Shown: one piece after another, positions 10,317-34,906 of the stretch | How the letters are laid out: every line of letters starts with the position of its first letter | Position numbering within the stretch: the stretch's first letter is position 1 | Source of the DNA: Escherichia coli | GTDB taxonomy: Bacteria > Pseudomonadota > Gammaproteobacteria > Enterobacterales > Enterobacteriaceae | DNA length: 64,000 bases | Reading direction: 5' to 3' (one strand) | NCBI RefSeq assembly: GCF_003334385.1 | Contig: NZ_QOWN01000007.1 | Notes under the pieces: generated by a model | The model's input: the letters and a program-made list of their open reading frames with translations, nothing else | Databases searched by the model: none | Told to the model about the DNA's origin: nothing | Program-made: the position numbers and the translations under genes

Positions 10317-11401
10317 TACTGGCGGCCCTCATAGTTCTGTTCAATCCACGATTGATAGGCACCACTTTTCACATTCTCGACCCATTTTGCATTAGCCAGG
10401 TACCATTCCACCGTTTTACGAATCCCACTCTCAAACGTTTCCTGCGGTTTCCAGCCCAATTCGCGGCTAATCTTCTCTGCATCAATCGCATAACGGCGAT
10501 CGTGTCCCGGGCGATCGGCAACATAAGTAATTTGCTCGCGGTAAGATTTCTCTTTCGGTACAATCTCATCCAACAAATCACAAATAGTGAGCACTACATC
10601 GATGTTTTTCTTTTCGTTGTGTCCACCAATGTTATAAGTTTCACCCGCTTTACCTTCAGTAACGACTGTATATAACGCTCGAGCATGATCCTCGACATAC
10701 AACCAATCGCGAATTTGATCCCCTTTACCATAAATAGGTAATGCTTTACCTTCCAGAGCATTCAGAATAACCAATGGAATCAATTTTTCCGGGAAATGAT
10801 AAGGACCATAATTGTTAGAGCAGTTAGTCACAATGGTCGGTAAACCATAGGTTCGTTTCCACGCGCGGACTAAATGATCGCTTGATGCTTTCGAAGCAGA
10901 ATATGGGCTACTTGGTGCGTAAGCTGTTGTCTCAGTAAATAAGGGTAATTCTTCTTTATTATTTACTTCGTCAGGATGAGGCAGATCGCCATAAACTTCG
11001 TCAGTAGAAATATGATGAAAACGGAAGCTATTTTTCTTGTCGCCATCAAGAGCAGACCAGTAATTGCGAGCCGCTTCCAAAAGGACATAAGTACCAACAA
11101 TATTGGTTTCAATAAATGCCGCAGGGCCTGTAATTGAACGATCCACATGGCTTTCAGCAGCCAAGTGCATCACTGCATCCGGCTGATGCTGAGCAAAAAT
11201 CCGTGCCATTGCAGCAGCATCGCAAATATCCGCATGTTCAAAAACATAGCGTTCAGAGTCAGAAACATCAGCAAGTGATTCCAGGTTTCCGGCGTACGTT
11301 AATTTATCGACATTAACAACACTATCCTGAGTATTATTTATAATGTGACGAACTACAGCAGAACCAATAAATCCTGCGCCACCAGTAACAAGTATTTTCA
11401 C
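10316..11401 (-). CDS. rmlB: dTDP-glucose 4,6-dehydratase
   Basis: 361 aa; [43 protein letters not shown] with a YxxxK active-site region ([10 protein letters not shown]); first gene of the O-antigen operon on the minus strand. Confidence 0.95.
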
Positions 11402-11476
11402 TTAATTTATTCCATATTACTTCAGAGCATGCTGTGAAATAAGCGGCTCTCAGTTTGATTAATAGAGGTATTAATG

Positions 11477-11488
11477 CACGCTACCGCC
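11477..11488 (-). promoter_or_regulatory. ops element (GGCGGTAGCGTG) within a JUMPStart sequence in the galF-rmlB intergenic region; RfaH-dependent antitermination site for the O-antigen operon
   Basis: Plus strand reads cacgctaccgcc at 11477-11488, the reverse complement of the ops consensus, so it is on the transcribed strand of rmlB. The flanking sequence acgctaccgcccctggcttt is shared with the second copy at 36225. Confidence 0.85.
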
Positions 11489-11773
11489 CCTGGCTTTACA
11501 GCTACCAGAGCACTGCATGCATGCCTACGATGTGACGAGCGTTACCCACTCGCGCTTAACCCGAAAAATTCAAACGCTAATTGTCTTACCAATCCGCCCT
11601 GGAAACAAGGAAAATCCTGGAAAACTTTGACTAAAATCCTATTGCTAACTCGTTGTTATTCTGATTGTTTATATAAAACAACGGCAGGAATATTCGCAAC
11701 AAATTACTTTCGCCACGAATCTTCACTGCCGTTATAATTTTCTTATCAACCGTTACATTCGGTCAGATTTTCA

Positions 11774-12667
11774 TTATTCGCTTAACAGCTTCTCAATACC
11801 CTTACGGAACTTCGCCCCTTCTTTGAGGTTGCGTAGTCCATACTTCACAAACGCCTGCATATAACCCATTTTTTTACCGCAGTCGTAGCTGTCACCAGTC
11901 ATCAGCATTGCATCAACAGACTGTTTTTTCGCCAGTTCGGCAATGGCATCTGTCAGTTGGATACGTCCCCATGCACCTGGCTGAGTGCGTTCAAGTTCCG
12001 GCCAAATATCTGCAGAAAGCACATAGCGACCAACGGCCATGATGTCTGAGTCCAGCGTCTGCGGCTGATCCGGTTTTTCGATAAATTCAACAATGCGGCT
12101 GACTTTGCCTTCGCGATCCAGCGGTTCTTTGGTCTGAATGACGGAGTATTCAGAGAGATCGCCCGGCATACGTTTTGCCAGCACCTGGCTGCGTCCCGTT
12201 TCGTTGAAGCGCGCAATCATGGCTGCAAGGTTGTAGCGCAGCGGGTCGGCGCTGGCATCGTCGATCACAACGTCTGGCAGCACCACGACAAATGGGTTGT
12301 CACCAATGGCGGGTCGTGCACACAAAATGGAGTGGCCTAAACCTAAAGGTTCGCCCTGACGCACGTTCATAATGGTCACGCCCGGTGGACAGATGGACTG
12401 CACTTCCGCAAGCAGTTGACGCTTCACGCGCTGCTCAAGGAGAGATTCTAATTCATATGAGGTGTCGAAGTGGTTTTCGACCGCGTTCTTGGACGCGTGA
12501 GTTACCAGGAGGATTTCTTTGATCCCTGCAGCCACAATCTCGTCAACAATGTACTGAATCATTGGCTTGTCGACGATCGGTAGCATCTCTTTGGGAATCG
12601 CCTTAGTGGCAGGCAACATATGCATCCCAAGACCCGCTACAGGAATAACTGCTTTTAAATTCGTCAT
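11774..12667 (-). CDS. galF: UTP-glucose-1-phosphate uridylyltransferase-like regulatory subunit GalF
   Basis: [52 protein letters not shown]... ...[16 protein letters not shown] is recognised as GalF. The track ORF extends 4 codons upstream from a GTG; the ATG at 12665-12667 gives the usual 297 aa product. Confidence 0.95.
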
Positions 12668-12841
12668 TATTTCATCCACCTGTAAAATGGTTGCTGAATT
12701 ATAACTTGTTCGATTTTTTTCGCCAGCATCAATTACCCTGAATTGATTACTGAATTACTTGTGATGTTACGCCGCTTCGTTGTGGATTGCAGTAGCATTG
12801 TTCCTAAGTATGGCTCCATTTTTCCAGGAATGGTCGCAAAT

Positions 12842-14236
12842 CTACTCCCTCCGTTCCGGCAATCTAAAGTTAATCTTTTCCACATTAACAATATGGTGAT
12901 TTATCCTGTCGATATCGACGGAGCTTTGCCCTTTTTCATTCACCGCATGAACATTTGCAAGTGACAGCAGTGTTTCTTTTTTCGCCATAAAGACGCCGCG
13001 AACGTCTTTGCGCATGTCGAAGTTCATGCTCAATGCTGGTCCAACTGAGGATTCCTGCATCACCTTGATATTTCGCATAAAAAGATGTTGCGGTTTGTTG
13101 TGTAACTCCAGCGACGCACGCTTCATCTCAATGTTAGTCAGCGCCACAAAGGAGACAGCATTCCCGGCAGAGATTTGGATACCGCGCAATTTATAAGCAA
13201 GATGGGTGTTATCCATTTGAATATTATTCACTCGGAAATTTTGCGGTATCGAGAGATATTTGCCTTTAATTACCCCATAGCCGATTAACATCCCAGCGCT
13301 ATTAATCATTTCAATATTATCAATCACGAAATTGTCACAACCGTAAATAGCGACCGTCGCGTTATCAATACCTGCTTTCTTACTGAAATCCGGCGTGATA
13401 TTGCGGGCTTTGATATTACGAATAACAAAATGTTTACCATTTTCAACATGGATCAACTGCCGACAATCCGATCCCGTGATATTCGCCACGACAAAGTTTT
13501 TCACTGCCTGGTCTTCCGGGTAGTTATTATCATAAGTACTCCCCGCAAGGCCTATGCCGATGCCCCAGTTGATTTTGCCGTTAGTACAGTTGATGCGCTC
13601 GATGACATGGTCAGATATCAAAATATCATGGTCGTTAATCGCCACGTTCCATTCAATAGCGTCCCCCTGTAAGTCGCTGAACTTACAATTGGTGATGTTG
13701 GCACCGATAATCTGGTTATGAAATCCCTGGCGTAAGATGGCGTAATTAGCGTGGCTAACGGTGAGGTTATCGATGATCAGGTTGCGCATGACCCGTTTGT
13801 TTTTGCCACCAATATAAATCTGCGTTACCGGGCCAAAGCCGCTCATCGCCAGCCCTTTGATGGTGCAGTCAGAGCCGCGCACATCCAGGGTGATGTTATG
13901 CATACTGCCGCCCTTCTCCCCTGTCACCTGGCTGCCGTCCTGTAAGACAAATCGCCCTCTGCCGTTGCCGCGCAGGCTTCCAAGGATGTGTAACGTTTTG
14001 CCAGGAGGAATGAAGATGCCGGTGTTGATATTGTCACAAACGAATCCAGCAGGCACGACGACCGTTTGCCCTTCGCTGAAGGCTTGTTTAAATGAGGCGA
14101 TCCAGTCGTGAGGGGTGTAGTCGTTAATGTTAACGCTTTGTCGGGCGGGAAGCGCGCGGGCGAAAGGGGTATGGAGGAAGGCAAGCGCGGAGCTTGCCGT
14201 CAGGAAGGTGCGTCGGGAGAGTTTTTTAAATGGCAT
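12842..14236 (-). CDS. wcaM: Colanic acid biosynthesis protein WcaM (predicted beta-helix, Tat-type signal peptide)
   Basis: 464 aa; [29 protein letters not shown]-terminus with a twin-arginine motif; last gene of the colanic acid operon, adjacent to galF. Confidence 0.9.
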
Positions 14237-14246
14237 ACGTTCTCCT

Positions 14247-15467
14247 CTATAAAGCTTGCAGCAAGCTGGCGAGTTCTCGATTGATCACCTGCTGGTTAAA
14301 ATCGTGTTCGACTTTTTCGCGAGCACGTTTGACGACAGGAGCCAGTTCGTCGGTGTCCAGTTGGCTAAACGCCGCCAGTCGTTGCGCCAATGCGCGAGCA
14401 TCGTTCTCAGGCACCAGCCAGCCGGATTTATCGGCCTCCACCAGTTCCGGTATTCCACTATGCAGAGTAGAAACCACCGGAATGCCGACCGCCATCGCTT
14501 CCATTAGCGCCACCGGAATACCTTCCATATCGCCGTCCGCACCCGTTACCGAAGGCAGCAGGAAGACATCCGCGTCGTCGAGCATCGCTTTCACTTCATG
14601 GCTCGGTTTAAAACCCGGCATCTCCACCACATCTTCCAGTTGATATTGTTCGATAAGCGTGCGCAGGCGTCGTTCCCACGGGCCAATGCCGAGAATGCGA
14701 TAGCGAAATGCCACGCCCTGCTCTTTCAACTGACGGCAGGCTTCAATCGCCACATGCAGACCTTTTTTCTCGGTTAAGCGTGCGACGGAAATGATTTCCA
14801 GCGGCGTTGCAGGCGCTTTCACCGGACGCGGGCTAAAGCGCGTCATGTCCACACCCATACGCGATACGGCAATTTTTTCCCTCGGGCAGCCCATTTTTTG
14901 CAGCCTTCCGGCCCACAAATCGCTTATCGGTAACATCAGATCGCCACGGCGAAACAGTTGCTGATATTCGGGAGTGTAATGGTTGAGCACTTCCCGACTG
15001 GAAATATCAATGCCGTGGAAAATAGTGGCAATTTTGCCGCGAATGACACCCAGTTCGCGTAGTTTTGCTGCGGTTACCCCCGCAGGGCCAAAATGAGCGA
15101 TGAACACATCGGCGCGAAACGGTGTTGCGACCTGACCACAAATGGCAGACAAAATCAGGTTCCGCGACTCGGCACCATAGCGTTTGAGGTTGAGCGCCTG
15201 CCAGGTATTTTTACGATGAATGCCGCGTAAGGTCTGGCTGGCGCGGTGGCGCAGTTTCGCAACTTTGCCTTGTGGTTCGTCCTGTAACCAGCGGGTTCTG
15301 GCAGCAAGGTTGTATTTCGTCCATGCCGCGTGGGTGTTCTGGGTGTCGCCTTTTTGCAGCGCGACAATCTCCACCTCAAAGCCCATATCAATAAACGCGG
15401 TAATTTGATTGAGGACGAAGGTTTCCGAAGACAGCGGAAATTTCAGTAAAAAGAAGCCGACCTTCAT
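14247..15467 (-). CDS. wcaL: Colanic acid biosynthesis glycosyltransferase WcaL (GT4)
   Basis: 406 aa; [22 protein letters not shown]... position and length match WcaL; start overlaps the wcaK stop. Confidence 0.9.
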
Positions 15468-16744
15468 TTCACCTCCCCGATGCGCTCAAGCACAGATTGC
15501 ACCATCTGCATTCCCGTCTGACGCTCACGACTGACGGCTTCGCTAAGTCGTGCGTTCAGCGCCGGAAGCTGGCCTAAGGTATCCGCAACCATCGCTTGCA
15601 GGCTGCCGTCTAATAAATGACGGATATCAATTGCCATCTCCGGTAGTCCCAGCTGCTGCATAATCCCGGCGGATTTATGTTCATAGTTGATGGCAATCGC
15701 CGGAGTAGCAAAGTTCATTGAGATAATGGCGGAGTGCAGGCGCGTACCGACGGTGAGTTCACAGGCCCCCAGAATTTTGCCCATTTCCAGATCGTTGAGT
15801 TCATCCATCACTACGTGGTAACGGGCAGGATCGCTGATGTGCTGACGCAAGTTGAGCGCCACCATGCGGTCGTCTTTGTTATAGCTGTCGATGCCCGTAC
15901 AGGTGGAGAGCGCAATCACCTGATAGCCTTCGTCGAGAATGCGATTGACCACCCCGGCAAAGGCTTTTTCATACGCTTGCTGAGTGGTGCCGAGACGTTT
16001 GTCGAACGGTGCCAGTTCGCGCAGGGTAATTGCCACCGTTTTCTGTTGTGCGGCAACGTCCAGCCAGTGTTGAACGGCATAGCTGGCAGTGAAGTCTTCG
16101 GTGTGGTGATCGACCAGCCACGCAGTATCGACGCCATGTTCCACTTTTGCAGTGGTGATATTGCTGCGTTTCATCAGATCAAGGCTGACCGATTCGCGCA
16201 GGATCAGCGCGTCACAGTGACCAAAAACGTAGTTCGCCAGTTGGTTAAATTGCTCATCCTGGAAGGGACCGACGCTGTGACCAATCATAAACAGCGGCTT
16301 TTTCGCCATAAACGTGCAAAGTGCATGTTCAAACTGCGGCACGCCATAGAGATCGACAAAAAACGATCCGCCGACCTGGATAATGGCATCGTAACCTGAC
16401 AGTAGGCGCACGAAGTCAGTGAATCCCTGGGCGATGGCAATATTGCGCAGCTTGCCAGTGTCGGTGACGCGCGAGAGCAATACCTGGTGTTGATAGCGGC
16501 GACGGAGGACTTTTTTAACGCGCCCGACAACGCCCGCCGCGCTGTTGTGTTGTTTCATTTGAAGGAACAGCGGATCGCCCATTACCGGGCGGTTGAGCAG
16601 CCAGGAAGAACTGACCGGATAGCGGCTCATCACGTCCACTTCGGTATGTGGATTGAGGATGTTGATGGCATCAAGTAAGCCGCGCAAGATGGCGCTGTCG
16701 CCACGATTGCCGCAAGTGTGGTTGCCCAGAATAAGTAATTTCAT
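15464..16744 (-). CDS. wcaK: Colanic acid biosynthesis pyruvyl transferase WcaK
   Basis: 426 aa; MKLLILGNHTCGNRGDSAILRGLLDAI matches polysaccharide pyruvyl transferase (WcaK/CsaB family). Confidence 0.9.
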   Translation of the reverse strand: MKLLILGNHTCGNRGDSAILRGLLDAINILNPHTEVDVMSRYPVSSSWLLNRPVMGDPLFLQMKQHNSAAGVVGRVKKVLRRRYQHQVLLSRVTDTGKLRNIAIAQGFTDFVRLLSGYDAIIQVGGSFFVDLYGVPQFEHALCTFMAKKPLFMIGHSVGPFQDEQFNQLANYVFGHCDALILRESVSLDLMKRSNITTAKVEHGVDTAWLVDHHTEDFTASYAVQHWLDVAAQQKTVAITLRELAPFDKRLGTTQQAYEKAFAGVVNRILDEGYQVIALSTCTGIDSYNKDDRMVALNLRQHISDPARYHVVMDELNDLEMGKILGACELTVGTRLHSAIISMNFATPAIAINYEHKSAGIMQQLGLPEMAIDIRHLLDGSLQAMVADTLGQLPALNARLSEAVSRERQTGMQMVQSVLERIGEVK

Positions 16745-16805
16745 TTTTTCCTCATAAATTTGATGCCAGGTGAGGCTGTGTTTGTTGTGTTCGTTGCCGT
16801 TTTTT

Positions 16806-17280
16806 GCCTGATGCGACGCTGGCGCGTCTTATCAGGCCTACAAGACCCGAGCACAGAACCGTAGGCCGGATAAGGCGTTCACGCCGCATCCGGCATTCAG
16901 TGCCTGATGCGACGCTGACGCGTCTTATCAGGCCTACAGGTCCCGAGCACAGAACCGTAGGATGGATAAGGCGTTCACGCCGCATCCGGCATTCAGTGCC
17001 TGATGCGACGCTGGCGCGTCTTATCAGGCCTACAAGACCCGAGCACAGAACCGTAGGCCGGATAAGGCGTTTTACGCCGCATCCGGCATTCAGTGCCTGA
17101 TGCGACGCTGGCGCGTCTTATCGGGCCTACAAGATCCAAGCCCTGAACCGTAGGCCGGATAAGGCGTTCACGCCGCATCCGGCATTCAGTGCCTGATGCG
17201 ACGCTGACGCGTCTTATCAGGCCTACAGGTCCCGAGCACAGAACCGTAGGATGGATAAGGCGTTTTACGCTGCACCCGGC
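16806..17280. repeat. BIME array of about five tandem REP (repetitive extragenic palindromic) units between wcaK and wzxC
   Basis: The unit gcctgatgcgacgctg(g/a)cgcgtcttatcaggcctaca...ccgtaggccggataaggcg...cgccgcatccggca recurs with a period of about 100-120 bp. Track ORFs 16752..16985, 16804..17100 and 16993..17307 are translations of these repeats. Confidence 0.9.
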
Positions 17281-17308
17281 AACCGTTGTCGGAACCGAAA
17301 ACAACAAC

Positions 17309-18787
17309 TCACCCCGCCCGTAAAAGCATTTTCATTTTTTCGCTGCGACAAAACTGACGCTTCACTTCCACCACCAGCGGATGGCGCGACAGCACAATCA
17401 TCACCACAAACGCCAGCACGCCCGCGGCTATTTGCACCGCCAGCAGCATCCCCAGCGCCAGTTGCCCTTTCAGCACAATGCCCAGCACATAACTGACCAC
17501 CAGCGTCGGCAGCGAGAGATAAAACGGCAGCCACAAACTCAGGATGTACTGGCGATAACTGGAACCAAGAACCGGTTTAATCATCACGAAGTAACTCAGA
17601 ATGGTGTTGATAATCTGCACCAGCAGGAAACCGAGCGTGACGCCGATTGCGCCCGCCATCTGCCCACCAATAACAATCGCCGGAATAAACAGAAATGTTT
17701 TGAATACGTTGAATTTAAAGCTGATGTCGACCCGCGCTTTCGCCATCAGTAGCGAACCAATCGGGTTACCCACCGAACGCAGCAGACCCACCACACACAG
17801 CAATTGCAGCACCGGAATAATGCTGTTCCACTTCTCACCAAAGACCAGCGGTACAAAGTTATTTGACACCACCATCAGCCCCAGCAGCGCCGGAAAGTTG
17901 ATAATCCCCACCACCGACAGCAGCTTGTAGAAGTTGACGCGCAGCTTTTCGGTATCGTCCTGAATTTTGGCGAATGCCGGAAACAACACGCGGGTGATGA
18001 TCGGGTTCAGCTTCATCGGCGGCACAACGGCCACGTTGTACGCCAGGTTGTATCCCCCGGCCACGCCCGCGCCGAGAATACGCGCCAGCACCAGCGTCGA
18101 AAGGTTGGTGTTGAGATAGTTGATGATGCTGTCCGCCGTCAGCCAGGCACCAAAGCGTAAGTTCGGTGCCACCGACGCCAGCGAGAAATGCAGACCGGGG
18201 CGATAAATTTTGCGGCCAAAGTAGCCAAACAGCAGCGTTCTCACCGCACTATTGACCAGATAACCGAGGATCGCGGTCATCGCCAGCGGCCAGAAATGGG
18301 CGCTAACCACCGTAAAAGTGAAGCCCGCCAGTACCGCGCTGGTTTCGATCATGCCGATTTTGTTGAACTCCAGCTCCTTCTGCATCAACGCGCGGAACTG
18401 TTGCCCGTGGGGGATCACCACAAACGCCAGCGACAATGTTTTAATCAACGGTGCCAGGTCCGGGTTATTCAGCACGTCGCCGATGAGATCACTCAACAAA
18501 AACACCGCCACGCACACCACGATCCCCAGCCCGACGTTCAGCCAGTACAACGTGGTGAGTTCAAGGTGACTGATTTCTTTTCGCTGAATAATCGAGTTAG
18601 CGATACCAAAGTCAGAAAGCGTATCTGCCAGCGCGATGATCACCAGCGACACGGTAAGCAAACCGAACTGGTGGTTGTCGATAATCCGCGCCAGCACGGT
18701 CATCTGCACCAGCCCGAGGCCGATGATGATCACCGTGGCAATCGCCGACCACTTCGCGCCGCTGATGGTTTTTTCACGTAAGCTCAT
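17309..18787 (-). CDS. wzxC: Colanic acid repeat-unit flippase WzxC
   Basis: 492 aa polytopic membrane protein, MSLREKTISGAKWSAIATVIIIGLGLVQMTVLARI..., between wcaJ and wcaK as in the colanic acid operon. Confidence 0.9.
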   Translation of the reverse strand: MSLREKTISGAKWSAIATVIIIGLGLVQMTVLARIIDNHQFGLLTVSLVIIALADTLSDFGIANSIIQRKEISHLELTTLYWLNVGLGIVVCVAVFLLSDLIGDVLNNPDLAPLIKTLSLAFVVIPHGQQFRALMQKELEFNKIGMIETSAVLAGFTFTVVSAHFWPLAMTAILGYLVNSAVRTLLFGYFGRKIYRPGLHFSLASVAPNLRFGAWLTADSIINYLNTNLSTLVLARILGAGVAGGYNLAYNVAVVPPMKLNPIITRVLFPAFAKIQDDTEKLRVNFYKLLSVVGIINFPALLGLMVVSNNFVPLVFGEKWNSIIPVLQLLCVVGLLRSVGNPIGSLLMAKARVDISFKFNVFKTFLFIPAIVIGGQMAGAIGVTLGFLLVQIINTILSYFVMIKPVLGSSYRQYILSLWLPFYLSLPTLVVSYVLGIVLKGQLALGMLLAVQIAAGVLAFVVMIVLSRHPLVVEVKRQFCRSEKMKMLLRAG

Positions 18788-18788
18788 A

Positions 18789-20183
18789 TCAATATGCCGC
18801 TTTGTTAACGAAGCCTTTGAATACCGTCAGGAAAACGATTTTGATATCGAACCAGACGCTCCATTCGCGGATGTACTCAAGGTCGAACTCGACGCGTTTT
18901 TCCATTTTCTCCAGCGTGTCGGTTTCGCCGCGCCAGCCGTTAATCTGCGCCCAGCCGGTAATGCCCGGTTTCACCTTATGACGCAGCATGTAGCCTTCAA
19001 TGAGCTGTCGATACTGTTCGTTATGCGCCACCGCGTGCGGACGTGGACCGACAATCGACATCCCCCCGGTCAGCACATTGATAAACTGCGGCAATTCATC
19101 CAGCGAGGTGCGGCGCAGAAAGTTCCCCACTTTGGTGACGCGCGGATCGTTCTGCGTCGCCTGGGTCACCACTTTGTCGTTCTCCATCACTTTCATGGAA
19201 CGGAACTTCCACACTTTGATCGGCTTGCCATCCATGCCGTAGCGAGTCTGGCGGAAAATAACCGGCCCAGGTGAACTGAGTTTCACCGCCAGCGCAATGC
19301 AGCACAGCACCGGGGAGATCAGCAGCAGGATAAGCGTCGCCAGCACAATGTCTTCCGCACGTTTGAGCAGGCGGTTAACCCCGGAAAGCGGCGTGTCGTA
19401 AAGCGGCACCACCGGAACGCCGTTCATCTCTTCAAGACGTGAATGGAGAATGTTGAAGGTAAAGACATCGGGGATCAGCAGCACCGAACAGGTGGTGTCC
19501 GCCAGTTGATGGACCAGTTTTTTCACTCGCGCGCCGTCGCACATTTGCATCGCGATATAGACGTTATGAATCTTGCCTGCTTTAGCATCCTCGACCAGCT
19601 GTTGCAGGTTACCCGCCCAGTCGTTAGAAACGCCGCCCGGTTTCGGGTCGTGGTAAACCCCCACCACTTCAAACCCTAACCACGGCTGATTACGGAAGCT
19701 CTCCATCAGCATTTGTCCGGCGGCTAAATCCCCCGCCACCGCGACCATGCGCTTGTTATAGCCATGATTACGCAGCCAGCCCGCCCCAATGCGAATACAC
19801 GAACGGCAAACCACCAGTCCGATGCTGGTCAGCCCATACCACGCCAGCCAGATTTTCAGTTGCGTGTCGAAATCATTGTTGAACGCCACCAGTCCGGCGC
19901 TGAAAATCACGCTTAACGTCCAGTTTTGTAGCAACAGGGCAAATTCTGTCGCTGCCCGAACACCGCGCCATGAGCGATAAAAATCGGTGATGCCGCCCAG
20001 CATCTGGAACACCACCAGCGTAATCAGCGCCACCAACAGGTGCATGTAGAGGAATGACAGTCCGCTGACTTCGCAAACCAGCCATAGCCCGGCAAACATG
20101 ATGGTGATATCTGAAAAGCGTTGCACCATAGAGATTAACGATGCATTGGTTTTCGCTCGCTCGCGCTTTTTTAGATTTGTCAT
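18789..20183 (-). CDS. wcaJ: Undecaprenyl-phosphate glucose phosphotransferase WcaJ
   Basis: 464 aa; the C-terminal sugar transferase region (DELPQFINVLTGGMSIVGPRPH) is typical of the polyisoprenyl-phosphate hexose-1-phosphate transferase family. Confidence 0.9.
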   Translation of the reverse strand: MTNLKKRERAKTNASLISMVQRFSDITIMFAGLWLVCEVSGLSFLYMHLLVALITLVVFQMLGGITDFYRSWRGVRAATEFALLLQNWTLSVIFSAGLVAFNNDFDTQLKIWLAWYGLTSIGLVVCRSCIRIGAGWLRNHGYNKRMVAVAGDLAAGQMLMESFRNQPWLGFEVVGVYHDPKPGGVSNDWAGNLQQLVEDAKAGKIHNVYIAMQMCDGARVKKLVHQLADTTCSVLLIPDVFTFNILHSRLEEMNGVPVVPLYDTPLSGVNRLLKRAEDIVLATLILLLISPVLCCIALAVKLSSPGPVIFRQTRYGMDGKPIKVWKFRSMKVMENDKVVTQATQNDPRVTKVGNFLRRTSLDELPQFINVLTGGMSIVGPRPHAVAHNEQYRQLIEGYMLRHKVKPGITGWAQINGWRGETDTLEKMEKRVEFDLEYIREWSVWFDIKIVFLTVFKGFVNKAAY

Positions 20184-20237
20184 CGTTGTTCCTGTTATTA
20201 GCCCCTTACCCGCAATGGGGTAAGGGAAGATCCGACA

Positions 20238-21608
20238 TTACTCATTCAGCAACGTCAGCAGAGTTCGCGTTCGCGCTTCCATCAGCGGCACATCACCGCG
20301 CGATTCCACATTCAACCGCACCACCGGTTCGGTGTTGGAGGAGCGCAGGTTAAAACGCCAGTCGGCAAAGGTCATACTGATGCCATCGGTACGATCCACC
20401 GCCAGCGCCTCACGGCTAAAATGCTGTTCCACGCGGTTAATCGCCTCAGCGGGTTGCGCCAGTTTGCTGTTGATCTCACCGCTTGCCGGAAACGCCACCA
20501 TCCGGTCGCGTACCAGTTCGCCCAGCGTTTTCTCTTTCAGGCACACCAGTTCGGCTACCAGTAGCCACGGGATCATGCCGCTGTCGCAGTAAGCGAAATC
20601 ACGGAAGTAATGGTGAGCGCTCATTTCGCCACCGTAGATGGCGTCCTCCTTGCGCATACGTTCTTTAATAAAGGCGTGTCCGGTTTTCGACATTACCGGC
20701 GTGCCACCTGCGGCAGTCACCACATCAACGGTGTTCCAGGAGAGACGTGGATCGTGGATGATCTTCGCGCCGGGATTTTTTTCGAGGAATGCTTCTGCCA
20801 GCAGGCCGACAATGTAATAGCCCTCGATAAACTGCCCTTTTTCGTCAAACAGGAAACAGCGGTCAAAATCGCCATCAAAGGCAATGCCCATATCCGCGCC
20901 GTGTTTGATGACCGCATTGCGGGTGTCGTCGCGACATTCCGGTAGCAGCGGGTTAGGAATACCGTTGGGGAAATTGCCGTCCGGTGTGTTGTGTACTTTG
21001 ATTAATTCCACGGGCGCGCCGAGGGCTTTAAAGCGGGCTTCAATGGCGTCCACCACCGGACCCGCTGCGCCATTCCCGGAGTTGATCACCAGCTTGAGCG
21101 GCGTGAGATTTTTGACATTGATATAACCGAACAGGTGATCAACGTAAGCGTCACGCAGGTTGATTTGCTGATAGCGACCGCGTTTGGTTTCATCGACGGG
21201 AGGAAAGTCGTTGGCTTCAGCCAGACGCTGGACGTCGCGCAGTCCGGTATCACCGCTGATCGGGCGAGCCCCTTCGCGCACCAGCTTCATGCCGTTATAA
21301 TCCATCGGATTATGGCTGGCGGTGACTTCAATGCCGCCATCCACGCCGAGATGGAACGTGGCGAAATAGATCTCTTCGGTGCCGGACATACCGATATCCA
21401 GCACGTCAACGCCCGCATCCTGTAAACCTTTTGCCAGCGCCAGTTTTAAGGTTTCGCTGGTGAGACGGACATCACCGCCTAACACAATGGTTTTCGGTTT
21501 GAGAAATTCGCCATAGGCGCGACCAATGCGCCAGGCGATATCTTCATTCAGTTCTTCGCCTAATTTCCCGCGAATATCATAGGCTTTAAAGCAGGTTAAT
21601 TTTTTCAT
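20238..21608 (-). CDS. cpsG: Phosphomannomutase
   Basis: [35 protein letters not shown]... with the phosphoserine loop TASHNP; 456 aa from the ATG at 21606-21608. The track ORF starts 16 codons upstream, probably spuriously. Confidence 0.9.
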
Positions 21609-21698
21609 GTCGTTACCCTTTTTCAGGCAATAGTTGGCCCTGACCGAAACGGCCAATTTTGTTTTTGTCGTTATTTACATCTCGGTTTCGCATTCATT

Positions 21699-21800
<102 letters not shown>

Positions 21801-23237
21801 TTACACCCGTCCGTAGCGATCCGCGAAGCGCACCACATCATCCTCTTCGAGATAAGAGCCGGAGCGCACTTCAATTAAATCGAGCGGAATTTTCCCCGGG
21901 TTTTCCAGGCAATGCGTCGCCCCCAGCGGAATATAAATGGACTCGTTTTCACCAAGCAGTTTGATATCACCGTCAATGGTGACTTTTGCCGTTCCCGCGA
22001 CCACTACCCAGTGTTCCGCGCGGTGATGATGCATCTGTACTGACAAGCCTTCGCCCGGTTTCACGGTGATGCGTTTCACCTGATAGCGGTCGCCCGCGTC
22101 AATAGAGTCATATTTGCCCCACGGGCGATAGACCTCGCGATGTACCCGATGCTCATGGCGACCATCGGCTTTGATCTGCTCGACCACTTTTTTCACATCC
22201 TGCACCGCGTTACGGTCGGCAATCAGCACCGCATCTTTGGTCTGCACCACTACCAGATCTTTCACCCCGACGGTGGTGACCAGGCCAGATTCGGCGTACA
22301 CATAGCTGTTTTCAGTTTTGTGATTAATCACATCGCCGTGGCAAACGTTGCCCTCGGCGGTGTGGGCGCTGATCTCCCATAATGAAGACCAGGAACCGAC
22401 ATCACTCCAGCCCGCATCCATCGGCACCACAACGGCATCTGCCGTACGTTCCATGACCGCGTAATCCACCGACTCTTCCGGGCAGGCGAGAAACGCTTCT
22501 TCATCCACACGAATAAAATCGAGATCCGGATCAATGGCGCTCATCGCTTTTTCACAGGCATCGAGAATATCCGGGCGATATTTTTTCAGTTCTTCGAGAT
22601 AGCGTCCGGCGCGGAACAGGAACATACCGCTGTTCCAGTAATATTCGCCGCTTGCCACATAGGCCTGGGCGGTTTCCAGATTCGGTTTTTCGACAAACTG
22701 CGCCACTTCAAAGGCCACCGTATCCTGCTCACCCGCAGACACTTCACCGCGACGAATATAGCCATAACCGGTTTCTGGTAGATCCGGCACAATGCCGAAG
22801 GTCACCAGCTTGCCCGCTTCGGCATATGGCATGGCATTACGCACGGCGGCACGGAACGCGTCTTCATCGGCAATCACATGATCCGCCGCCAATACCAGCA
22901 TTAACGGGTCGCTCTCCGGGCTATGACGTTTTGCCGCCAGCGCCGCCAGTGCAATGGCAGGTGCAGTGTTACGCCCTGCCGGTTCGAGAATAATGTTCTC
23001 GGTGAGTTTGTTCAGTTGACGCAGCTGTTCCGCGACAATAAAGCGGTGCTGCTCATTGCAAATCACCACCGGGCTTTCGCACTCCACGCCGTTCAGGCGG
23101 CAGATGGTGGTTTGCAGCATGGTGAGATCGCCTTTCAGGCATAAAAACTGCTTGGGGTAAAGTACGCGGGAAAGCGGCCATAAGCGGCTACCGGAGCCAC
23201 CTGCCATCACAACTGGATAGAGTTTCGACTGCGCCAT
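21801..23237 (-). CDS. cpsB: Mannose-1-phosphate guanylyltransferase
   Basis: 478 aa; [32 protein letters not shown] is the ManC/CpsB N-terminus, with a C-terminal cupin region. Confidence 0.95.
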
Positions 23238-23239
23238 AA

Positions 23240-24463
23240 TTATCCCCGAATATCATTTATAAATTGACGTAACACGTTCTCTTTATCGAGTGTGCGTTCG
23301 GCATATTCACGTGCCACCGTGTTGTGTTTGGGCAGCAGGAGCGCCTGACGGATCCCCGCCACCAGCGCCTCGACCGATTCCGGTTCTACGCAAACCGCAA
23401 TGCCCGGAAAGGTTTCGCAAAGCTGCCCCAGTTCTGTGTGGGCCTCTGCGGTAATCACCGCGTTACCGCCTACCGCCAGAATATTGGTCAGTTTCGACGG
23501 CAATACGGCATCTGCCGCGCCGCGTTTTTGCACCACCAGATGGCAATCGCCCATCTTCAGCAGTGCGGGTAAAGCGTCATACGATTGCAGCGGGAAAAAT
23601 TGCATGTTGCGCAGTCCACGCTGCTGCGCCATTTTTTCCAGCCGCGCTTTGCCGCCGCCCTGCCCGACAATGGCAAAAATCAGCGGTTCATCGCGCAGAC
23701 GATCGGCAGCTTCAATAACGTTTTCCAGCCCCTGCTTTTCACCAATATTGCCGGAGTAAAGAATGATTTTTTTGTTATCCGGCAGGTCAAGCTGGTTACG
23801 AAGGGCGTCAACATCGGCATCTGCAACATGCTGAAAACGGGCAATTTCCGACCAGTTGGGGAAGAAGATGACGTTTTCCGCCGCCACGCCTTTTTCGATG
23901 GCTTTATTCATCATTGAACGCGAAATCGTGGAGACGTTATCGACGTTATGCAGTCCGCTACGTTCGAACGCCGTTGCCAGCTGTGCCACTTTGCCGCCTT
24001 TGCCTTTTCCGGCAAGGCCCAGCCCCAGCATGGCGTCCACTTCGTAATCCTGAATATGCAGCACGGTACGCGCACCAGAGAGCTTCGCCAGCAGGCGCAT
24101 TCCCGGCGTGCAAAACAGCGTTGGCACTACGCCGATAATGCGATCCGGCTTCCAGCGACGTTGCGCCATCAGTGGAAAGAAACTGCTGACGGCAAAACTG
24201 CCGAGATGCAACAAGCGTTTCAGGGTGCTCGGCTGTTTTGGCACGTACAGCGGGCAGCGCCACACCGTGGCGGCCCCCTCTTCTCGTTTGTAGCGCCAGG
24301 CGGAATAGTTCTCGCCCACCTGCCACTGCGGGTAGTAAGGCGGTGCGGTAATAACCCGCACCTCATGACCTTGTGCCGCCAGCCATTCCACCATCTCGCC
24401 GGTGTATTTGCCGATACCGGTTAACTCCGGCGAGTAGTTAATGCCGTAGACCAGTATTTTCAT
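23240..24463 (-). CDS. wcaI: Colanic acid biosynthesis glycosyltransferase WcaI (GT4)
   Basis: 407 aa; [47 protein letters not shown]. Confidence 0.9.
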
Positions 24464-24942
24464 AATCCGGGTACTCCGGCACGCTTCTCAGCGAGAAAAT
24501 AGGCGCGGCTGTTAGCGTGAACATCGTTACTGGCGAGCAGCGCGTCCGGCGTCAGCCAGCGGTAATCGTCATGCTGCTCATCCGGCAGTATCAGATCTTC
24601 TTCAGCGACTCTGAAGCGAAAACCGAGCACCACATAGTGAGTGGTGAAATCCGTGCCGGAGAAGTTATCGTCATAAAAGTGCTGCCAGACACCGTAAAAC
24701 TGGCCTGCTGTTATCGGCAGACGCAGCCCCAGTTCCGCCATCGTCAGCCGCTCGAATGCGGCTTCCAGCGTTTCGTCTTTCTGCACGCGCCCTCCCGGCA
24801 CAAACCAGTAACCCTGCGCCGGGCGGTTGGTTCTTTTGCCAAGCAGAAACTCGCCGCGACTGTTCTCGACAATAAAGTCGAGAGAGACAAGCGGAGTGGA
24901 GCGCACTACCGTGGCAAAGTCTTCCTGACGTAAAAACATCAT
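24460..24942 (-). CDS. gmm: GDP-mannose mannosyl hydrolase (Nudix)
   Basis: 160 aa; [72 protein letters not shown] contains a Nudix box. Confidence 0.9.
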
Positions 24943-25907
24943 TACCCCCGAAAGCGGTCTTGATTCTCAAGGAACCACTGGTAAGTGCTGGCAAGCCCCG
25001 CTTCCAGTGAGATTTCGTGATACCAGCCAAGCTGATGCAGGCGCGTCACATCCAGCAGTTTGCGCGGCGTACCATCCGGTTTACTGGCATCAAAAACCAC
25101 CCGACCTTTGTAACCCACCACTTTGGCGATGGTTTGCGCCAGCTCGCGGATAGTGCAGTCAACGCCCGTGCCGACGTTAATGTGCGACAGCATCGGCTGG
25201 GTGTTCTCCAGCCAGACTTCGTGCGCCAGCTCCATCACATGAATGCTTGCCGCCGCCATATCATCGACGTGCAGGAATTCACGCATCGGTGTACCGCTGC
25301 CCCACACCACCACGTCCGGCGCATTCTGTGCCGTCGCCTCGTGGAAGCGACGCAGCAATGCAGGGATCACATGCGAATTACTCGGGTGGAAGTTGTCGTG
25401 TGGCCCGTACAGGTTGGTCGGCATGACTGAACGGTAATCTCGTCCGTACTGGCGATTGTAAGATTCGCACAATTTGATCCCGGCGATTTTGGCAATAGCA
25501 TAAGGCTCGTTAGTCGGCTCCAGCGTGCCCTGCAACAACTCGCTTTCTGCCATCGGCTGTTTTGCCAGTTTCGGGTAGATGCAGGACGATCCGAGAAACA
25601 GCAGTTTGTTCACGTCGTTCTGATGCGCGGCGTGAATGATGTTGCTCTCAATCATCATGTTCTGGTAGATGAAATCCGCCGGATAGGTGTTGTTGGCAAC
25701 AATGCCGCCCACTTTCGCCGCCGCCAGATAGACCTGGTCAATACGTTCGCTGGCAAAGAAATCATGCACGGCGCGGCTGTCCAGCAGGTTCAGCTCGTCG
25801 CGGGTGCGTAATACCAGTTCCACATCACCGCGCTGTTCGAGCTGTCGCTTGATGGCGGAACCGACCATCCCGCGATGGCCAGCGATAAAAATTCGTTGTT
25901 TACTCAT
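24942..25907 (-). CDS. fcl: GDP-L-fucose synthase
   Basis: 321 aa; [43 protein letters not shown]. Confidence 0.95.
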
Positions 25908-25909
25908 GC

Positions 25910-27031
25910 TTATGACTCCAGCGCGATCGCCACGTCGTAGCCGTGAGATTTCAGCAGAGAGTGTTTTTTCGCCGCCTCGAGGTCATTAGCCACCATTTCA
26001 GACACCATCTCTCTGAGGGTGATTTCCGGTTTCCAGCCCAGTTTTTCGTGCGCTTTAGTCGGGTCGCCGAGCAGCGTTTCAACTTCAGCCGGACGGAAGT
26101 AACGCGGGTCAACGGCGATAATCACATCCCCCGGTTTAACGCCCGGCGCGTCATGCCCGGTGACGGAAACCACAATGCCCTTCTCTTCAACGCCCGTGCC
26201 TTCAAAGCGCAGTTTGATGCCCAGCTGTGCTGCCGCCATTTCTACGAACTGACGCACGGAGTACTGAACGCCGGTAGCAATAACGAAATCTTCTGGCTGT
26301 TCCTGTTGCAGCATCATCCACTGCATTTTTACGTAGTCTTTGGCATGGCCCCAGTCACGCAGGGAATCCATATTGCCGAGGTACAGGCACGACTCCAGCC
26401 CCTGGGCGATGTTGGCGATTGCGCGGGTTATTTTGCGGGTAACGAAGGTTTCGCCACGGCGCGGGGATTCATGGTTGAAGAGAATACCGTTGCAGGCGTA
26501 CATGCCGTAGGATTCGCGGTAGTTAACGGTGATCCAGTAGGCGTACAGTTTGGCGACCGCATACGGAGATCGCGGGTAGAACGGCGTGGTTTCTTTCTGC
26601 GGAATTTCCTGCACCAGACCATACAGTTCAGAGGTGGAAGCCTGATAGAAACGGGTTTTCTTTTCCAGACCGAGGAAGCGGATCGCCTCGAGCAGGCGCA
26701 GCGTACCCATCGCGTCGACGTCAGCGGTATATTCCGGTGACTCAAAAGAAACCGCAACGTGGCTCATTGCCCCCAGGTTGTACACTTCATCCGGCTGTAC
26801 TTCACGCAAAATGCGCGTCAGGTTGGAGGTATCACTCAGGTCGCCATAATGCAGATGGAATTTCGGGTTGCAGGTGTGCGGATCCTGATAAATGTGATCC
26901 ACGCGCTCGGTGTTGAATGACGATGCGCGACGCTTAATACCATGCACCTCGTAACCTTTTTCCAGCAGAAACTCTGCCAGGTAAGAACCGTCTTGTCCGG
27001 TTACACCGGTGATGAGAGCGACTTTTGACAT
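25910..27031 (-). CDS. gmd: GDP-mannose 4,6-dehydratase
   Basis: 373 aa; [50 protein letters not shown]. Confidence 0.95.
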
Positions 27032-27057
27032 GTCTTATTCCTCTGTATTTTTTGAAT

Positions 27058-27606
27058 TTATTCAGTTTCAACGCGTTCGCGTATCACCACTGCTGGATTC
27101 CCCCGGCAAACCACATTTGCCGGAAGCGATTTAAAAACACTGCTTCGCGCACCCACGACGGTGCCGTTACCGATCGTGACGCCTGGGGCAACAAAGACAT
27201 CGGTTGCCAGCCAGCATTTCTCGCCAATCACAATAGGCGTGGCGTTAATGGTGAAATGTTGACTTGCATGGTCGTGGCTCCCGGTGCATAAATAACTTTT
27301 TTGCGATATCACCGAATGTGCGCCAATGGTTATTTCACCGAGGGTATATAAATTGACGTCATCGCCGACCCACGCGTAATCACCTAAGGTTAATTTCCAC
27401 GGATAGGTAATTTTTACTGACGGACGAATAACTACGTTTTTTCCTATTTTTGCGCCGAATAAACGTAATAAAAATGCCCGCCAGCGATACAATACTTGTG
27501 GCGACCAGGCAAATATTGTTGCCTGTACTGCCCACCATAATTGCACTTTAATAGCGTTGCCGCCCCGGAACCCTTTCGGCACCGAGAAACCGCTTAAATC
27601 TTGCAT
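27058..27606 (-). CDS. wcaF: Colanic acid biosynthesis acetyltransferase WcaF (hexapeptide repeat)
   Basis: 182 aa with left-handed beta-helix hexapeptide repeats (IGEKCWLATDVFVAPGVTIGNGTVVGARSSV). Confidence 0.9.
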   Translation of the reverse strand: MQDLSGFSVPKGFRGGNAIKVQLWWAVQATIFAWSPQVLYRWRAFLLRLFGAKIGKNVVIRPSVKITYPWKLTLGDYAWVGDDVNLYTLGEITIGAHSVISQKSYLCTGSHDHASQHFTINATPIVIGEKCWLATDVFVAPGVTIGNGTVVGARSSVFKSLPANVVCRGNPAVVIRERVETE

Positions 27607-27621
27607 CGTTTTCCCTTATAT

Positions 27622-28368
27622 TCAGCTTTTGTTATATAAGGCTTTCGTCTTTGAGGTAGTACGTTGGCGTAAATGCCAGGATAATTCTGCCCAGAAGCCA
27701 GGCACATGTAATATCTGCCGTTGGACTTTTTTGGCGTCAGCACACAATTCCATATTATTGGTGGTTGATACCCCACCCATTGAAAATTCAGACACCAGGC
27801 CATTGAGTTTTTTAAATGCATAACCGGCTTTATACATTTTAGCCGCCAGCGCGTAATCGGAAGAAACTTTATATTCCAGGTCATAACGCCATTTTTTCAA
27901 GCCGGACACCGGGAAAAATATCGCCTGATGACTGGCGGGCAGACTGTGGTAAATATACCAGCCAGGTTTGGCGCTACGTTTAATTTTATGCCCGTCGCCA
28001 AAATCCAGCAGCGCATCGCCGGTGATCATCACGTTATCTTTTTGCATTTTTAACTTACGGACAAAATTTGCGGCATCCTGATGAAAAATATCGCCCGAGT
28101 TGAGAAACAACGCGAACTTGCCTTGTGCCATCGCAATGCCTTTGTTCATGGCGTCGTAGATACCGTTATCTGGCTCGCTGACAAAGCGTAGGTTATAGAT
28201 ACCATTGAGATTTTCCAGATACTCACGGGTGCCGTCATTGGAGCCGCCATCGACAACAATCCATTCGAAGCTGATATCGTCCGCCTGCGCCAGATGCGCC
28301 AGCGAGGCATGTGTTTTGACTATCCCTTCGAGGTTACGAAACGCGACAGTGATTATGCTAAGCAACAT
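27622..28368 (-). CDS. wcaE: Colanic acid biosynthesis glycosyltransferase WcaE (GT2)
   Basis: 248 aa; [47 protein letters not shown]. Confidence 0.9.
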
Positions 28369-28378
28369 GTTCTTATTA

Positions 28379-29596
28379 TTACCTCGTAATATTTAACGCT
28401 TTTCGCAAAATAAACGGACAGACGATTAAAAATGCATATTCCGGGCTAAATATCGAACCGGTAAAAAACAGCGATACCGGAGTAAAAAGATATAATTGCA
28501 CGCGAAAATTGCGGTTATCACCAAAAGCGTTGATCATCATTTTTATCACTTTCCCCATGTACCACAGCGATAAAAACACCGCGAACCAGGAAAAATAAAT
28601 AATCAGCAGATACAAACCATTGTCTATGGTTTTTCCGACATCCGCACCGTTAAATATTCCGAATGATGCGACATATTCATAAAGTGAGCCAAATCTGACT
28701 ACACCGTCAATATGGGTCAAAGAATAACCGACCATCACCAGCGGACCGACAATACGATAATACGATGACGATCCTTCCGTACCTAAATCGCCCAGACGGG
28801 TGGAAATATAAGGAAATGCGATTACCACACCAACCAGGAATACAGCCAGAGAAATCAATGCTAACGGTAACTTTTTCTTAATCGCCTCTTTATTCAGATA
28901 TTGAAATGCCCACTCCAGCAAATAAAACAGGATAAAGGTCATAACCCCTGAAAACGATCCGGATAATATTATCCCTGCGAGAATCATAGCATCTGTTTTA
29001 GGCGTTTTGATACCAAACTGTTTGATGCTGAGCCAAATTGAGATTAATGCCAGAGCGAAAAATGCCGGTTCGAAATAAAGTGCTGTCGTGCGCTTGCCGC
29101 CGAATTTAATGAAATTCAGCACATAGCTGTTGCTGTAAATCAGATATTTCGAAATCGACTCCATAATACTGCTGCCACCGGTGAGGATAATTTGCGCCAT
29201 CTCCACCGCCGCCAGCGCCACCACCAGCCCGACCACCAGATAAAAGAAACGTAATATCTTGCGATGGTTGTGTGGCGAAATCGTTTTAAAGCGAATACTC
29301 CACACCATGCCAATAATGATCACAATATAGACAAACAGCATGGTTGAAGTGACGTATTTACTGGCATCCAACGACTGACCAAACAGGTAGTTAAACGCCG
29401 TGAGTCCCGCACCAATCCCTAAGGCAATAATCAATTTTTTAACGCTGATGCGTTCTAAAAACAGCAGTAATAAGACAGGTAAAAAAGTGACGATGGTGAT
29501 GGGGAAACTTTCGCCAAGCTGGGCGATTTTGACGTTAACCAGCAGGTAGATCAGCGGCAGCAGCAGGTAGCTACAGATTCTGATAGAAGTTGACAT
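28379..29596 (-). CDS. wcaD: Colanic acid polymerase WcaD
   Basis: Polytopic membrane protein; [38 protein letters not shown] from the ATG at 29594-29596 gives about 405 aa. The track ORF extends a further 24 codons into wcaC. Confidence 0.85.
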
Positions 29597-30788
29597 ACTC
29601 CTCCAGCATCTGTTGTCCACTGTAGGCGGCGCGGCTGCGTTGGCTGAACTCAGCCAGCGTGGTACCAAATATCGCCTGCGCGATTTCCGGTTTGCTTAAC
29701 TGCACCAGTTGCAGCACGTCTTCTTCGCTGACGGTTTTACCGCCGGATTTTTGCAGCACTTCCCGCGCCGCGTCGCTATGGGTGGCAATCACCGGCACGC
29801 CAATCGATAGCGCCTCACACAAAATCAGCGGGTAGTTATCGACGCGAGAACTGAACACCAGCGCATCCATCTGATTGAGCGCGCTCATCAACTTGCGCTT
29901 GTCAGTTTCAAAGCCGTGATTAACCACGTTGCCAGCGGTGAACGGCGAGAACTTACCAAAGGTATGCAGTTCGATTTTATCGCCCAGCGCCATCATCTCA
30001 CGCACCAGTTGCTGGTTAGTCTTGCCGTCGTAACGCAGGTCATGCGCCACCACCGCGATTTTCGGCTTGCCCTGGGTTTCGCGTACCGGAGGCAAGTCCG
30101 CCAGAATCGCTTCTGTTGCCACATCAATACCATTATTGATAATCCGGCAACGCCCTGGACCGTACAGACTATTGAAAGCGTCAGCCACATGCTGGCTGGG
30201 GGAAATAAACTGACAGCCCAGTGCCAGCATCTCGCGGAATAACTGGCGTTTGCCCGCCACCAGCTGGTGCGCCCGATCAATCTTCACCGGCGGATAGTTA
30301 TTTAAGGTCGGGCATTTCTGGCAGCCCGTTTTCCAGCCTTCGCAACCGTCGGTAAAGGCGCAGCGTCCGGTAACGCTCCAGTGATCGTGCAGCGTCCAGA
30401 CCAGAGTGGCGTCCGGTTTATGGTTTTTCACCTTTTCGCAAAAGCGCACCACGCTGTTAAGATTCAACCAGTAGCTGTGCAGCACATGAAAATGCAGGAC
30501 CACCGGACCCGGTGTGCGAGTAATGGTGCGATATAACTCATTGAAATTGCCGAACAGATCGCGATTAAACAGACGAAACAGGGCAATGTTCGCCATCGCG
30601 GTCATCCGCGGCGTATGTTTGATGACCTGCGGATAGTTTTGATGGCTGACGCTCTCTTTGCCGCCTTTGCCGTAACCGTAGACAAAATGTGACGCCAGCC
30701 CCTGTTGCAGCGCACGCTGGTGGAGATCTAACGCCACACCTGCTGCCCCGCCTTCCGCCAGTCGCACATTAAATTGCAAAATATTCAT
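29571..30788 (-). CDS. wcaC: Colanic acid biosynthesis glycosyltransferase WcaC (GT4)
   Basis: 405 aa; MNILQFNVRLAEGGAAGVALDLHQRALQQGLASHFVYGYGKGG. Confidence 0.9.
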   Translation of the reverse strand: MNILQFNVRLAEGGAAGVALDLHQRALQQGLASHFVYGYGKGGKESVSHQNYPQVIKHTPRMTAMANIALFRLFNRDLFGNFNELYRTITRTPGPVVLHFHVLHSYWLNLNSVVRFCEKVKNHKPDATLVWTLHDHWSVTGRCAFTDGCEGWKTGCQKCPTLNNYPPVKIDRAHQLVAGKRQLFREMLALGCQFISPSQHVADAFNSLYGPGRCRIINNGIDVATEAILADLPPVRETQGKPKIAVVAHDLRYDGKTNQQLVREMMALGDKIELHTFGKFSPFTAGNVVNHGFETDKRKLMSALNQMDALVFSSRVDNYPLILCEALSIGVPVIATHSDAAREVLQKSGGKTVSEEDVLQLVQLSKPEIAQAIFGTTLAEFSQRSRAAYSGQQMLEEYVNFYQNL

Positions 30789-31273
30789 TTAATTACCTTC
30801 ACTCGCGCTTTTTCTCCCACCACCAGCGCGTTGTCCGGGACAGAGTCGAGCACCACGCTGCCCGCACCCACGGTGACGTTGTTACCAAGCGTGATATCAC
30901 CAAGAATAATGACGTTGGCACCGAGTTCGACGCCGTTGCCAATGTGTGGACATGCCATGTTATCGGCACCACGATTGCCGATAGTGACGCCGTGGCGAAT
31001 GGTGAAATCATCCCCCGCCACCACGTTTTTATTGATCACTACGGCGTAACCGTGATGGATAGTAAAGCGGCGGCCAATGGTCGCGGCGGCCTGGATTTCA
31101 TAACCGAAAAAGCATTCGGTGATAATGCGATACAGCACCAGCAGCGGGGCCGCCCACAGATTGTTGAGGACGTTCTTTTTGCGCCACACCGAACAAAAAT
31201 GAGCAACGCGATAGGCAAGAACCATGCAGCACGGGCGTAAACTCCAGCTGTTGGCGCGCAGATCTTCCAGCAT
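30785..31273 (-). CDS. wcaB: Colanic acid biosynthesis acetyltransferase WcaB (serine acetyltransferase-like hexapeptide repeat)
   Basis: 162 aa; hexapeptide repeats (IGRRFTIHHGYAVVINKNVVAGDDFTIRHGVTIGNRG). Confidence 0.9.
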   Translation of the reverse strand: MLEDLRANSWSLRPCCMVLAYRVAHFCSVWRKKNVLNNLWAAPLLVLYRIITECFFGYEIQAAATIGRRFTIHHGYAVVINKNVVAGDDFTIRHGVTIGNRGADNMACPHIGNGVELGANVIILGDITLGNNVTVGAGSVVLDSVPDNALVVGEKARVKVIK

Positions 31274-31275
31274 CT

Positions 31276-32115: not shown

Positions 32116-32178
32116 AGGTTGTTCTCCCGGAGTGTCGAGATGTTCTGCCGGTTTATAAGCTTGTTTACGGGTTCTGTT

Positions 32179-32285
32179 GCCGGATGCGGCGTGAGCGCCT
32201 TATCCGGCCTACGGAGCTGGTTTGCTTGCCGGATGCGGCGTGAAGGTAGGTCGGATAAGATGCGTCAGCATCGCATCCGACAGCG
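32179..32285. repeat. REP palindromic units between wcaA and wzc
   Basis: gccggatgcggcgtgagcgccttatccggcctac ... gccggatgcggcgtgaaggtaggtcggataag ... catcgcatccgaca. Confidence 0.8.
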
Positions 32286-32292
32286 GATGTCG

Positions 32293-34455: not shown

Positions 34456-34457
34456 TC

Positions 34458-34901: not shown

Positions 34902-34906
34902 GACGA

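Follow-up and report, generated by a model that had tools for sequence, protein, structure and literature searches.

The taxonomic spread of JUMPstart elements was reportedly documented by Hobbs and Reeves in 1994, as it also is in Rfam. Among the operons of the RfaH regulon, waaQ, hlyCABD, kps and tra are all long, encode surface or secreted components, and have the same 12-nt ops sequence set in a JUMPstart context within a long untranslated leader. Their leaders are of different lengths and unrelated in sequence to the ones considered here; in hly the leader is 1616 nt long and ops lies 634 bp upstream of hlyC, whereas in the present sequence the distances from ops to the start codon are 76 and 179 nt. 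A nearer relative is found in the K30-type group 1 capsule loci, in which a near-identical JUMPstart lies downstream of galF and upstream of wzi (PMC6128206). Strains of this type have the capsule locus in place of colanic acid, their ops has C instead of G at position 12, and the leader around the element shows no relation to the present one.

The way in which RfaH recognizes ops on non-template DNA has been established by structure and mutagenesis. At the ops pause a small hairpin arises in the non-template strand, held by a C3:G8 pair, and the N-terminal domain of RfaH reads G5 and the flipped-out T6 (PMC5995543). According to a review, the rfb and waaQ operons have ops and JUMPstart in their 5'UTRs and are without ribosome-binding sites (PMC6358824), and the transcription of the colanic acid genes has been cited as a case of JUMPStart-RfaH antitermination (PMC9976346). 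ChIP-seq of RfaH in strain CFT073 (Hustmyer et al. 2022) revealed eight bound loci, all of which have just one ops on the non-template strand of their leader; 34 ops-like sites within coding regions showed no RfaH binding, and all of the signals were gone in a delta-rfaH strain (PMC9765446).

The pair of sites described below is already known, since these are the textbook JUMPstart/ops sites that precede the O-antigen and colanic acid clusters in E. coli, and they are near-identical to those of K-12. Descriptions of the elements, of where they lie and of how they work date from 1994-2002 onwards, with genome-wide ChIP confirmation in 2022.

Results and discussion

Two ops sequences, each within a JUMPstart element

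The window, by which we mean the whole 64-kb stretch of E. coli chromosomal DNA that was analysed, contains two exact copies of the 12-nt ops sequence GGCGGTAGCGTG, where approximately none would be expected: not one of 100 dinucleotide-preserving shuffles gave any match. When both strands were searched with the looser pattern GGCGGTAGNNTG, the same two sites were recovered and nothing further. The original prediction that ops occurs twice on the minus strand is therefore exact, both in number and in position (Table 1). Both copies satisfy the ops consensus GGCGGTAGnnTG (8-nt core GGCGGTAG) without exception, both have the C3:G8 pair, G5 and T6 that make up the hairpin and the RfaH contacts, and the 12-mer was found by folding to form a small DNA hairpin. 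Allowing up to two mismatches raised the total in the window to ten sites, against 5.0 +/- 2.1 expected. The eight sites beyond the exact pair were not considered functional, given that their number is near chance and that all of them lie inside listed ORFs.

Table 1. Positions of the JUMPstart/ops elements, leaders, promoters and operons in the 64-kb window
Feature	Position	Strand	Description and basis
O-antigen operon	577..11401	-	rfbB, rfbD, rfbA, rfbC, glycosyltransferases, wzx, wzy, galE; VE-T2 annotation and ORFs
galF-rfbB intergenic region	11402..11773	-	Promoter(s) and untranslated leader; ORFs and annotated genomes with 99.8% identity
ops element 1	11477..11488	-	GGCGGTAGCGTG, exact match; starts 87 nt and ends 76 nt upstream of the rfbB start
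JUMPstart element 1	11477..11515	-	CAGTGCTCTGGTAGCTGTAAAGCCAGGGGCGGTAGCGTG, 39 nt; Rfam RF01707, 60.0 bits, E=2.6e-11
Putative main rfb promoter	11580..11608	-	-35 TTGTTT (11608-11603), 17-nt spacer, -10 GACAAT (11585-11580)
Equivalent of the K-12 rfbB TSS	11718	-	Via the gap-free 372-column K-12 alignment; 230 nt upstream of ops
galF	11774..12667	-	Between the two ops-controlled operons; own K-12 TSS, equivalent to window 12691
Colanic acid operon	12842..36046	-	wza-wzb-wzc-wcaA...wcaM, 23.2 kb; ORFs, K-12 and VE-T2 annotation
wzc-wcaA gap	32116..32292	-	REP-type palindromes; candidate internal attenuator
ops element 2	36225..36236	-	GGCGGTAGCGTG, exact match; starts 190 nt and ends 179 nt upstream of the wza start
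JUMPstart element 2	36225..36263	-	CAGTGTATTGGTAGCTAAAAAGCCAGGGGCGGTAGCGTG; Rfam RF01707, 57.3 bits, E=1.6e-10
Candidate wza promoter	36352..36379	-	TGGAGA-16-CATAAT, sole sigma70-like hexamer pair on the wza strand in a consensus scan; would place ops at about +110

At each site ops forms the 3' end of a 39-nt JUMPstart that is recognized by Rfam model RF01707, with model positions 1-38 of 38 matched in both cases and with scores well above the gathering score of 35. Both sites are bona fide JUMPstart/ops elements, and the shuffles and Rfam scores together rule out the idea that the pair arose by chance. An extended conserved context had also been noticed around ops, and the 21-nt stretch aaagccaggggcggtagcgtg is indeed found in both copies, although the conserved block is really the whole 39-nt JUMPstart. 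Of its 39 positions 34 are the same in the two copies, their flanks are unrelated, and this element is the only sequence that the two leaders have in common.

The conservation of the element was examined in an alignment of nine leaders, consisting of the wza copy and eight galF-linked leaders, six of which were fetched from divergent loci. In the divergent loci the element lies downstream of galF and before unrelated first genes, namely rfbB, an O6-type wzx (CFT073 type), tviB (O98), glycosyltransferase genes of two different kinds, and the wzi gene of a group 1 capsule. Inside JUMPstart 30 of the 39 columns are invariant, compared with 9 of 279 outside it. Positions 1-11 of ops do not vary at all, the hairpin and contact bases included; at position 12, G, A and C all occur. 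A sensitive BLAST search of 5426 E. coli genomes with the rfb leader gave matches in 4302, the weakest of which keep query positions 125-172 alone, corresponding to JUMPstart, and many of the alignments end a few bases past ops.

Between O-antigen leaders of different serogroups, homology breaks a few bases after ops (window 11470-11480), and the O-antigen cluster therefore has its upstream recombination junction at JUMPstart.

A different reading of the conservation is that JUMPstart is mainly a structured RNA element of the 5'UTR, acting by an RNA-level mechanism, with ops matched only incidentally. Weinberg et al. 2010 detected a conserved stem-loop in JUMPstart sequences (PMC2864571), and both copies in the window have a 5-bp stem (CUGGU/GCCAG) whose single change, a U in place of C in wza, leaves a G-U pair. 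However, the nine-sequence alignment contains no two-sided compensatory change in this stem and consequently offers no covariation support, folding of the 173-nt leader is no more stable than that of its shuffles (z=-0.51), and the 39-mers are not unusually stable against their own shuffles (z=+0.1 to +0.4). Moreover, the most invariant part of the element is the unpaired ops 11-mer, and structural and mutational work has RfaH reading ops on the non-template DNA (PMC5995543). We consider it very improbable that the RNA structure is the main function of these elements.

The leader and promoter of the O-antigen operon

The nearest genome to the one analysed is that of strain VE-T2, with 99.8% identity across the galF-rfbB junction, and in its annotation PGAP labels wzx and wzy as 'O48 family'. 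The O-antigen operon is 10.8 kb long, and on the minus-strand reading galE is followed by gnd. The O-unit genes have a GC content of approximately 30% (window 1000-8000), as against approximately 54% for the colanic acid genes. So low a value in the serogroup-specific genes (glycosyltransferases, wzx, wzy) is typical of horizontally acquired, H-NS-bound DNA, and this fits the proposal that RfaH counteracts both H-NS and Rho on DNA of such origin.

In K-12 MG1655 (O16) the rfb leader is found at the same position with the same length of 372 nt, and can be aligned without gaps at 98% identity. The 13 substitutions fall within its upstream half, the last at leader position 246 of 372. JUMPstart begins at position 260, and from 14 nt upstream of it to rfbB the two sequences are 100% identical. 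The genes rfbBDAC are the first four in both K-12 and the window, whereas the O-unit genes downstream of them differ, being of O16 type in K-12 and of the PGAP 'O48 family' here.

The intergenic region is bounded by ORFs at 10316..11401 and 11774..12679, and the sole ORF of at least 20 aa on its minus strand is a 31-aa GTG ORF at 11631-11726. No same-strand ORF of at least 20 aa was found to overlap either ops, and near-identical genomes are annotated with both sites between genes; inside a translated gene, RfaH would be kept out by coupled ribosomes and NusG. It had been proposed that 11402-11773 and 36047-36400 are leaders rather than unannotated coding sequence; the noncoding nature of the ops regions is upheld by this result, but the two ranges are wider than the leaders, as they also include promoters and non-transcribed upstream DNA. 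On the wza side, the first range limit, 36047, directly precedes the ATG, and the other, 36400, was set arbitrarily within the 658-nt wza-yegH intergenic region, beyond which yegH lies on the opposite strand. Neither the sequence upstream of the rfbB GTG (..atatggaataaattaaGTG) nor that upstream of the wza ATG (..gtgataaataaacaATG) contains an AGGAGG-like site, and this lack of a Shine-Dalgarno-like site before either gene fits RfaH-assisted recruitment of ribosomes.

A promoter for the rfb genes is suggested by a conserved block, cTTGTTTc...TTGGTAAGA(C/T)AATTAG, which is present in seven of the eight galF-linked leaders, including two that are approximately 71% identical overall. In these seven, GA(C/T)AAT follows 17 nt after cTTGTTTc; the group 1 capsule (wzi) leader is without the TTGTTT/GACAAT block. 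From the position of the block, transcription of rfb is predicted to start near 11573, which would place ops at about +87. A leader of 173 nt was reportedly mapped for the O7 cluster by Marolda and Valvano in 1998, and this agrees with the promoter predicted here.

Experimental start sites are available for K-12. The table of Kim et al. 2012 assigns a single TSS to rfbB, at 2111402(-) for a gene at 2110000-2111085, with a 5'UTR of 317 nt and 8 reads (PMC3415461). When carried over to the window this site is upstream of ops, and the same table contains no TSS between ops and rfbB (PMC3415461), so that the available K-12 data for rfb place the start of transcription before ops and not after it. 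The K-12 site (window 11718, 8 reads) does not coincide with the start expected from the conserved block (approximately 11573, with a leader of approximately 173 nt). There may be two rfb promoters, or one of the two signals may be minor. The galF gene has a K-12 TSS of its own, 24 nt upstream of the gene (PMC3415461).

The leader and promoter of the colanic acid operon

The region upstream of wza is 100% identical over 801 nt to that of K-12 DH5alpha and of many other strains, so there are no differences from DH5alpha in JUMPstart or ops over this length. More widely, among 5426 complete E. coli genomes 4829 have a wza leader with an identity of at least 95%. The candidate promoter listed in Table 1 is a weak match to the consensus, and one sigma70-like hexamer pair was found near wza where 3.8 would be expected by chance. 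No wza TSS is present in the K-12 table of Kim et al. 2012, which covers three conditions (PMC3415461). In CFT073 a sigma70 peak upstream of wza appears only when hns and stpA are both deleted (PMC9765446). Under standard conditions the wza promoter is silent or repressed by H-NS. The two indirect indications of where wza transcription starts, the CFT073 sigma70 peak of this double deletion and the weak hexamer pair, are both upstream of ops.

Upstream of wza, no match to the RcsAB-box consensus TAAGAATATTCCTA was found with up to three mismatches allowed. By eye, the nearest candidate was TAAGAATTATATTA at 36450-36463(+), which has four mismatches and is not claimed as an RcsAB box. On the other side, TGCGAATATTCCTG at 11685-11698(-) matches the consensus with three mismatches upstream of the predicted rfb promoter, which is at chance level for the window.

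Many genomes carry a PGAP call for a 49-aa 'hypothetical protein' (WP_162829205.1) at the equivalent of 36355-36504(+). It runs antisense to wza within AT-rich promoter DNA and lies upstream of JUMPstart. No equivalent gene is present in MG1655, and for this reason we judge the ORF to be probably spurious.

Group 1 capsule loci have a stem-loop attenuator after wzc, and at the equivalent place in the colanic acid operon the gap between wzc and wcaA contains REP-type palindromes. By analogy, this gap is a candidate for an internal attenuator that would be read through by RfaH-modified RNA polymerase.

Probable loading of RfaH on the two operons

Both copies of ops read 5' to 3' on the minus strand, as do all genes of both operons, and are thus on the non-template strand. 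This confirms the direction that had been assigned to the rfbB... and wza... operons from the ops sites. The rfaH gene itself is outside the 64-kb window. Terminator scans found intrinsic-terminator-like sites inside both operons in numbers at chance level.

Occupancy by RfaH has been determined at the homologous loci of CFT073. RfaH is present on the O-antigen operon in the wild type, where the ChIP peaks of sigma70 fall at predicted TSSs upstream of ops; on wza-wcaM it is absent in the wild type and present when both hns and stpA are deleted (PMC9765446). By analogy with these loci, RfaH would be expected to occupy both operons of the present strain as well, from starts upstream of each ops. 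The original prediction that both long operons depend on RfaH is supported by the ChIP-seq data in this way, with the qualification that for colanic acid the dependence is conditional, the promoter being normally silent.

With the position, strand, family membership and strong conservation of both elements observed directly in the window, we consider it highly probable that they form the canonical JUMPstart/ops pair of the his-linked polysaccharide region of E. coli and load RfaH on both operons. According to this model, RNA polymerase would initiate upstream of each JUMPstart and transcribe into the leader, pausing once the 12-nt ops is exposed on the non-template strand, where a small hairpin would form with a C3:G8 stem and with G5 and T6 presented. 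Autoinhibited RfaH would recognize the hairpin, bind RNA polymerase, exclude NusG and stay to the end of the operon. While on the polymerase it would suppress pausing, Rho-dependent polarity and H-NS roadblocks, and its refolded C-terminal domain would help to recruit ribosomes where a gene has a poor Shine-Dalgarno site. The expected outcome is full-length expression of the AT-rich O-antigen operon and likewise, once Rcs signalling turns on the wza promoter, of the 23-kb colanic acid operon.

The absence of a wza start from the three K-12 conditions of Kim et al. (PMC3415461), and of RfaH from wza-wcaM in wild-type CFT073 (PMC9765446), might also be explained if the wza ops were conserved but idle, with colanic acid set by RcsAB-dependent initiation alone and only the O-antigen operon dependent on RfaH. 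The GC content of the colanic acid genes, at approximately 54%, does make them less obviously prone to H-NS and Rho than the O-unit genes. However, once initiation is de-repressed RfaH is loaded on wza-wcaM in an rfaH-dependent manner (PMC9765446), which argues against an idle element. Nor would an idle element be expected to be 100% conserved, within a leader as widely shared as this one. RfaH control of colanic acid is also cited in the literature, for which Stout (1996) and Navasa (2014) are reportedly the sources. We regard an idle wza ops as even less probable than a mainly RNA-level role for JUMPstart, and we retain RfaH loading at both operons.

Loading of RfaH at two successive ops sites might also link the operons to each other. 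RfaH-modified polymerase from an Rcs-induced wza promoter could conceivably read through galF into the O-antigen cluster, where the second ops would re-load RfaH on any complexes from which it had been lost. The terminator scans showed no convincing intrinsic terminator between wcaM, galF and rfbB, and thus read-through from the wza promoter could occur. According to Hustmyer et al., RfaH-bound complexes sometimes run past predicted transcription units (PMC9765446). Such a relay, which we think unlikely, would if true couple O-antigen output to envelope-stress signalling.

The value of the two elements is mainly for annotation, as they fix the direction and the 5' boundaries of both polysaccharide operons. 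They also flag both operons as RfaH-dependent, which bears on virulence, on serum resistance and on the engineering of colanic acid or O-antigen production. As such, the JUMPstart pair raises no new biological question.

Other RNA and repeat elements in the window

Several further elements were seen in the window. The gap between wzxC and wcaK is filled by four tandem REP/BIME-type units at 16864-17223(+), which match Rfam naRNA4 (RF02564) with 72-80 bits. This gap is 564 nt here against 275 nt in K-12, so that the number of repeat copies inside the colanic acid operon varies. Also inside the operon, an algC RNA motif (RF02929, 78 bits) at 21613-21662(-) lies directly upstream of the phosphomannomutase gene cpsG/manB. 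Finally, the SibA and SibB antitoxin RNAs (RF00113, 150 and 142 bits) are found at 52087-52235 and 52422-52564(+), upstream of mdtA as in K-12.
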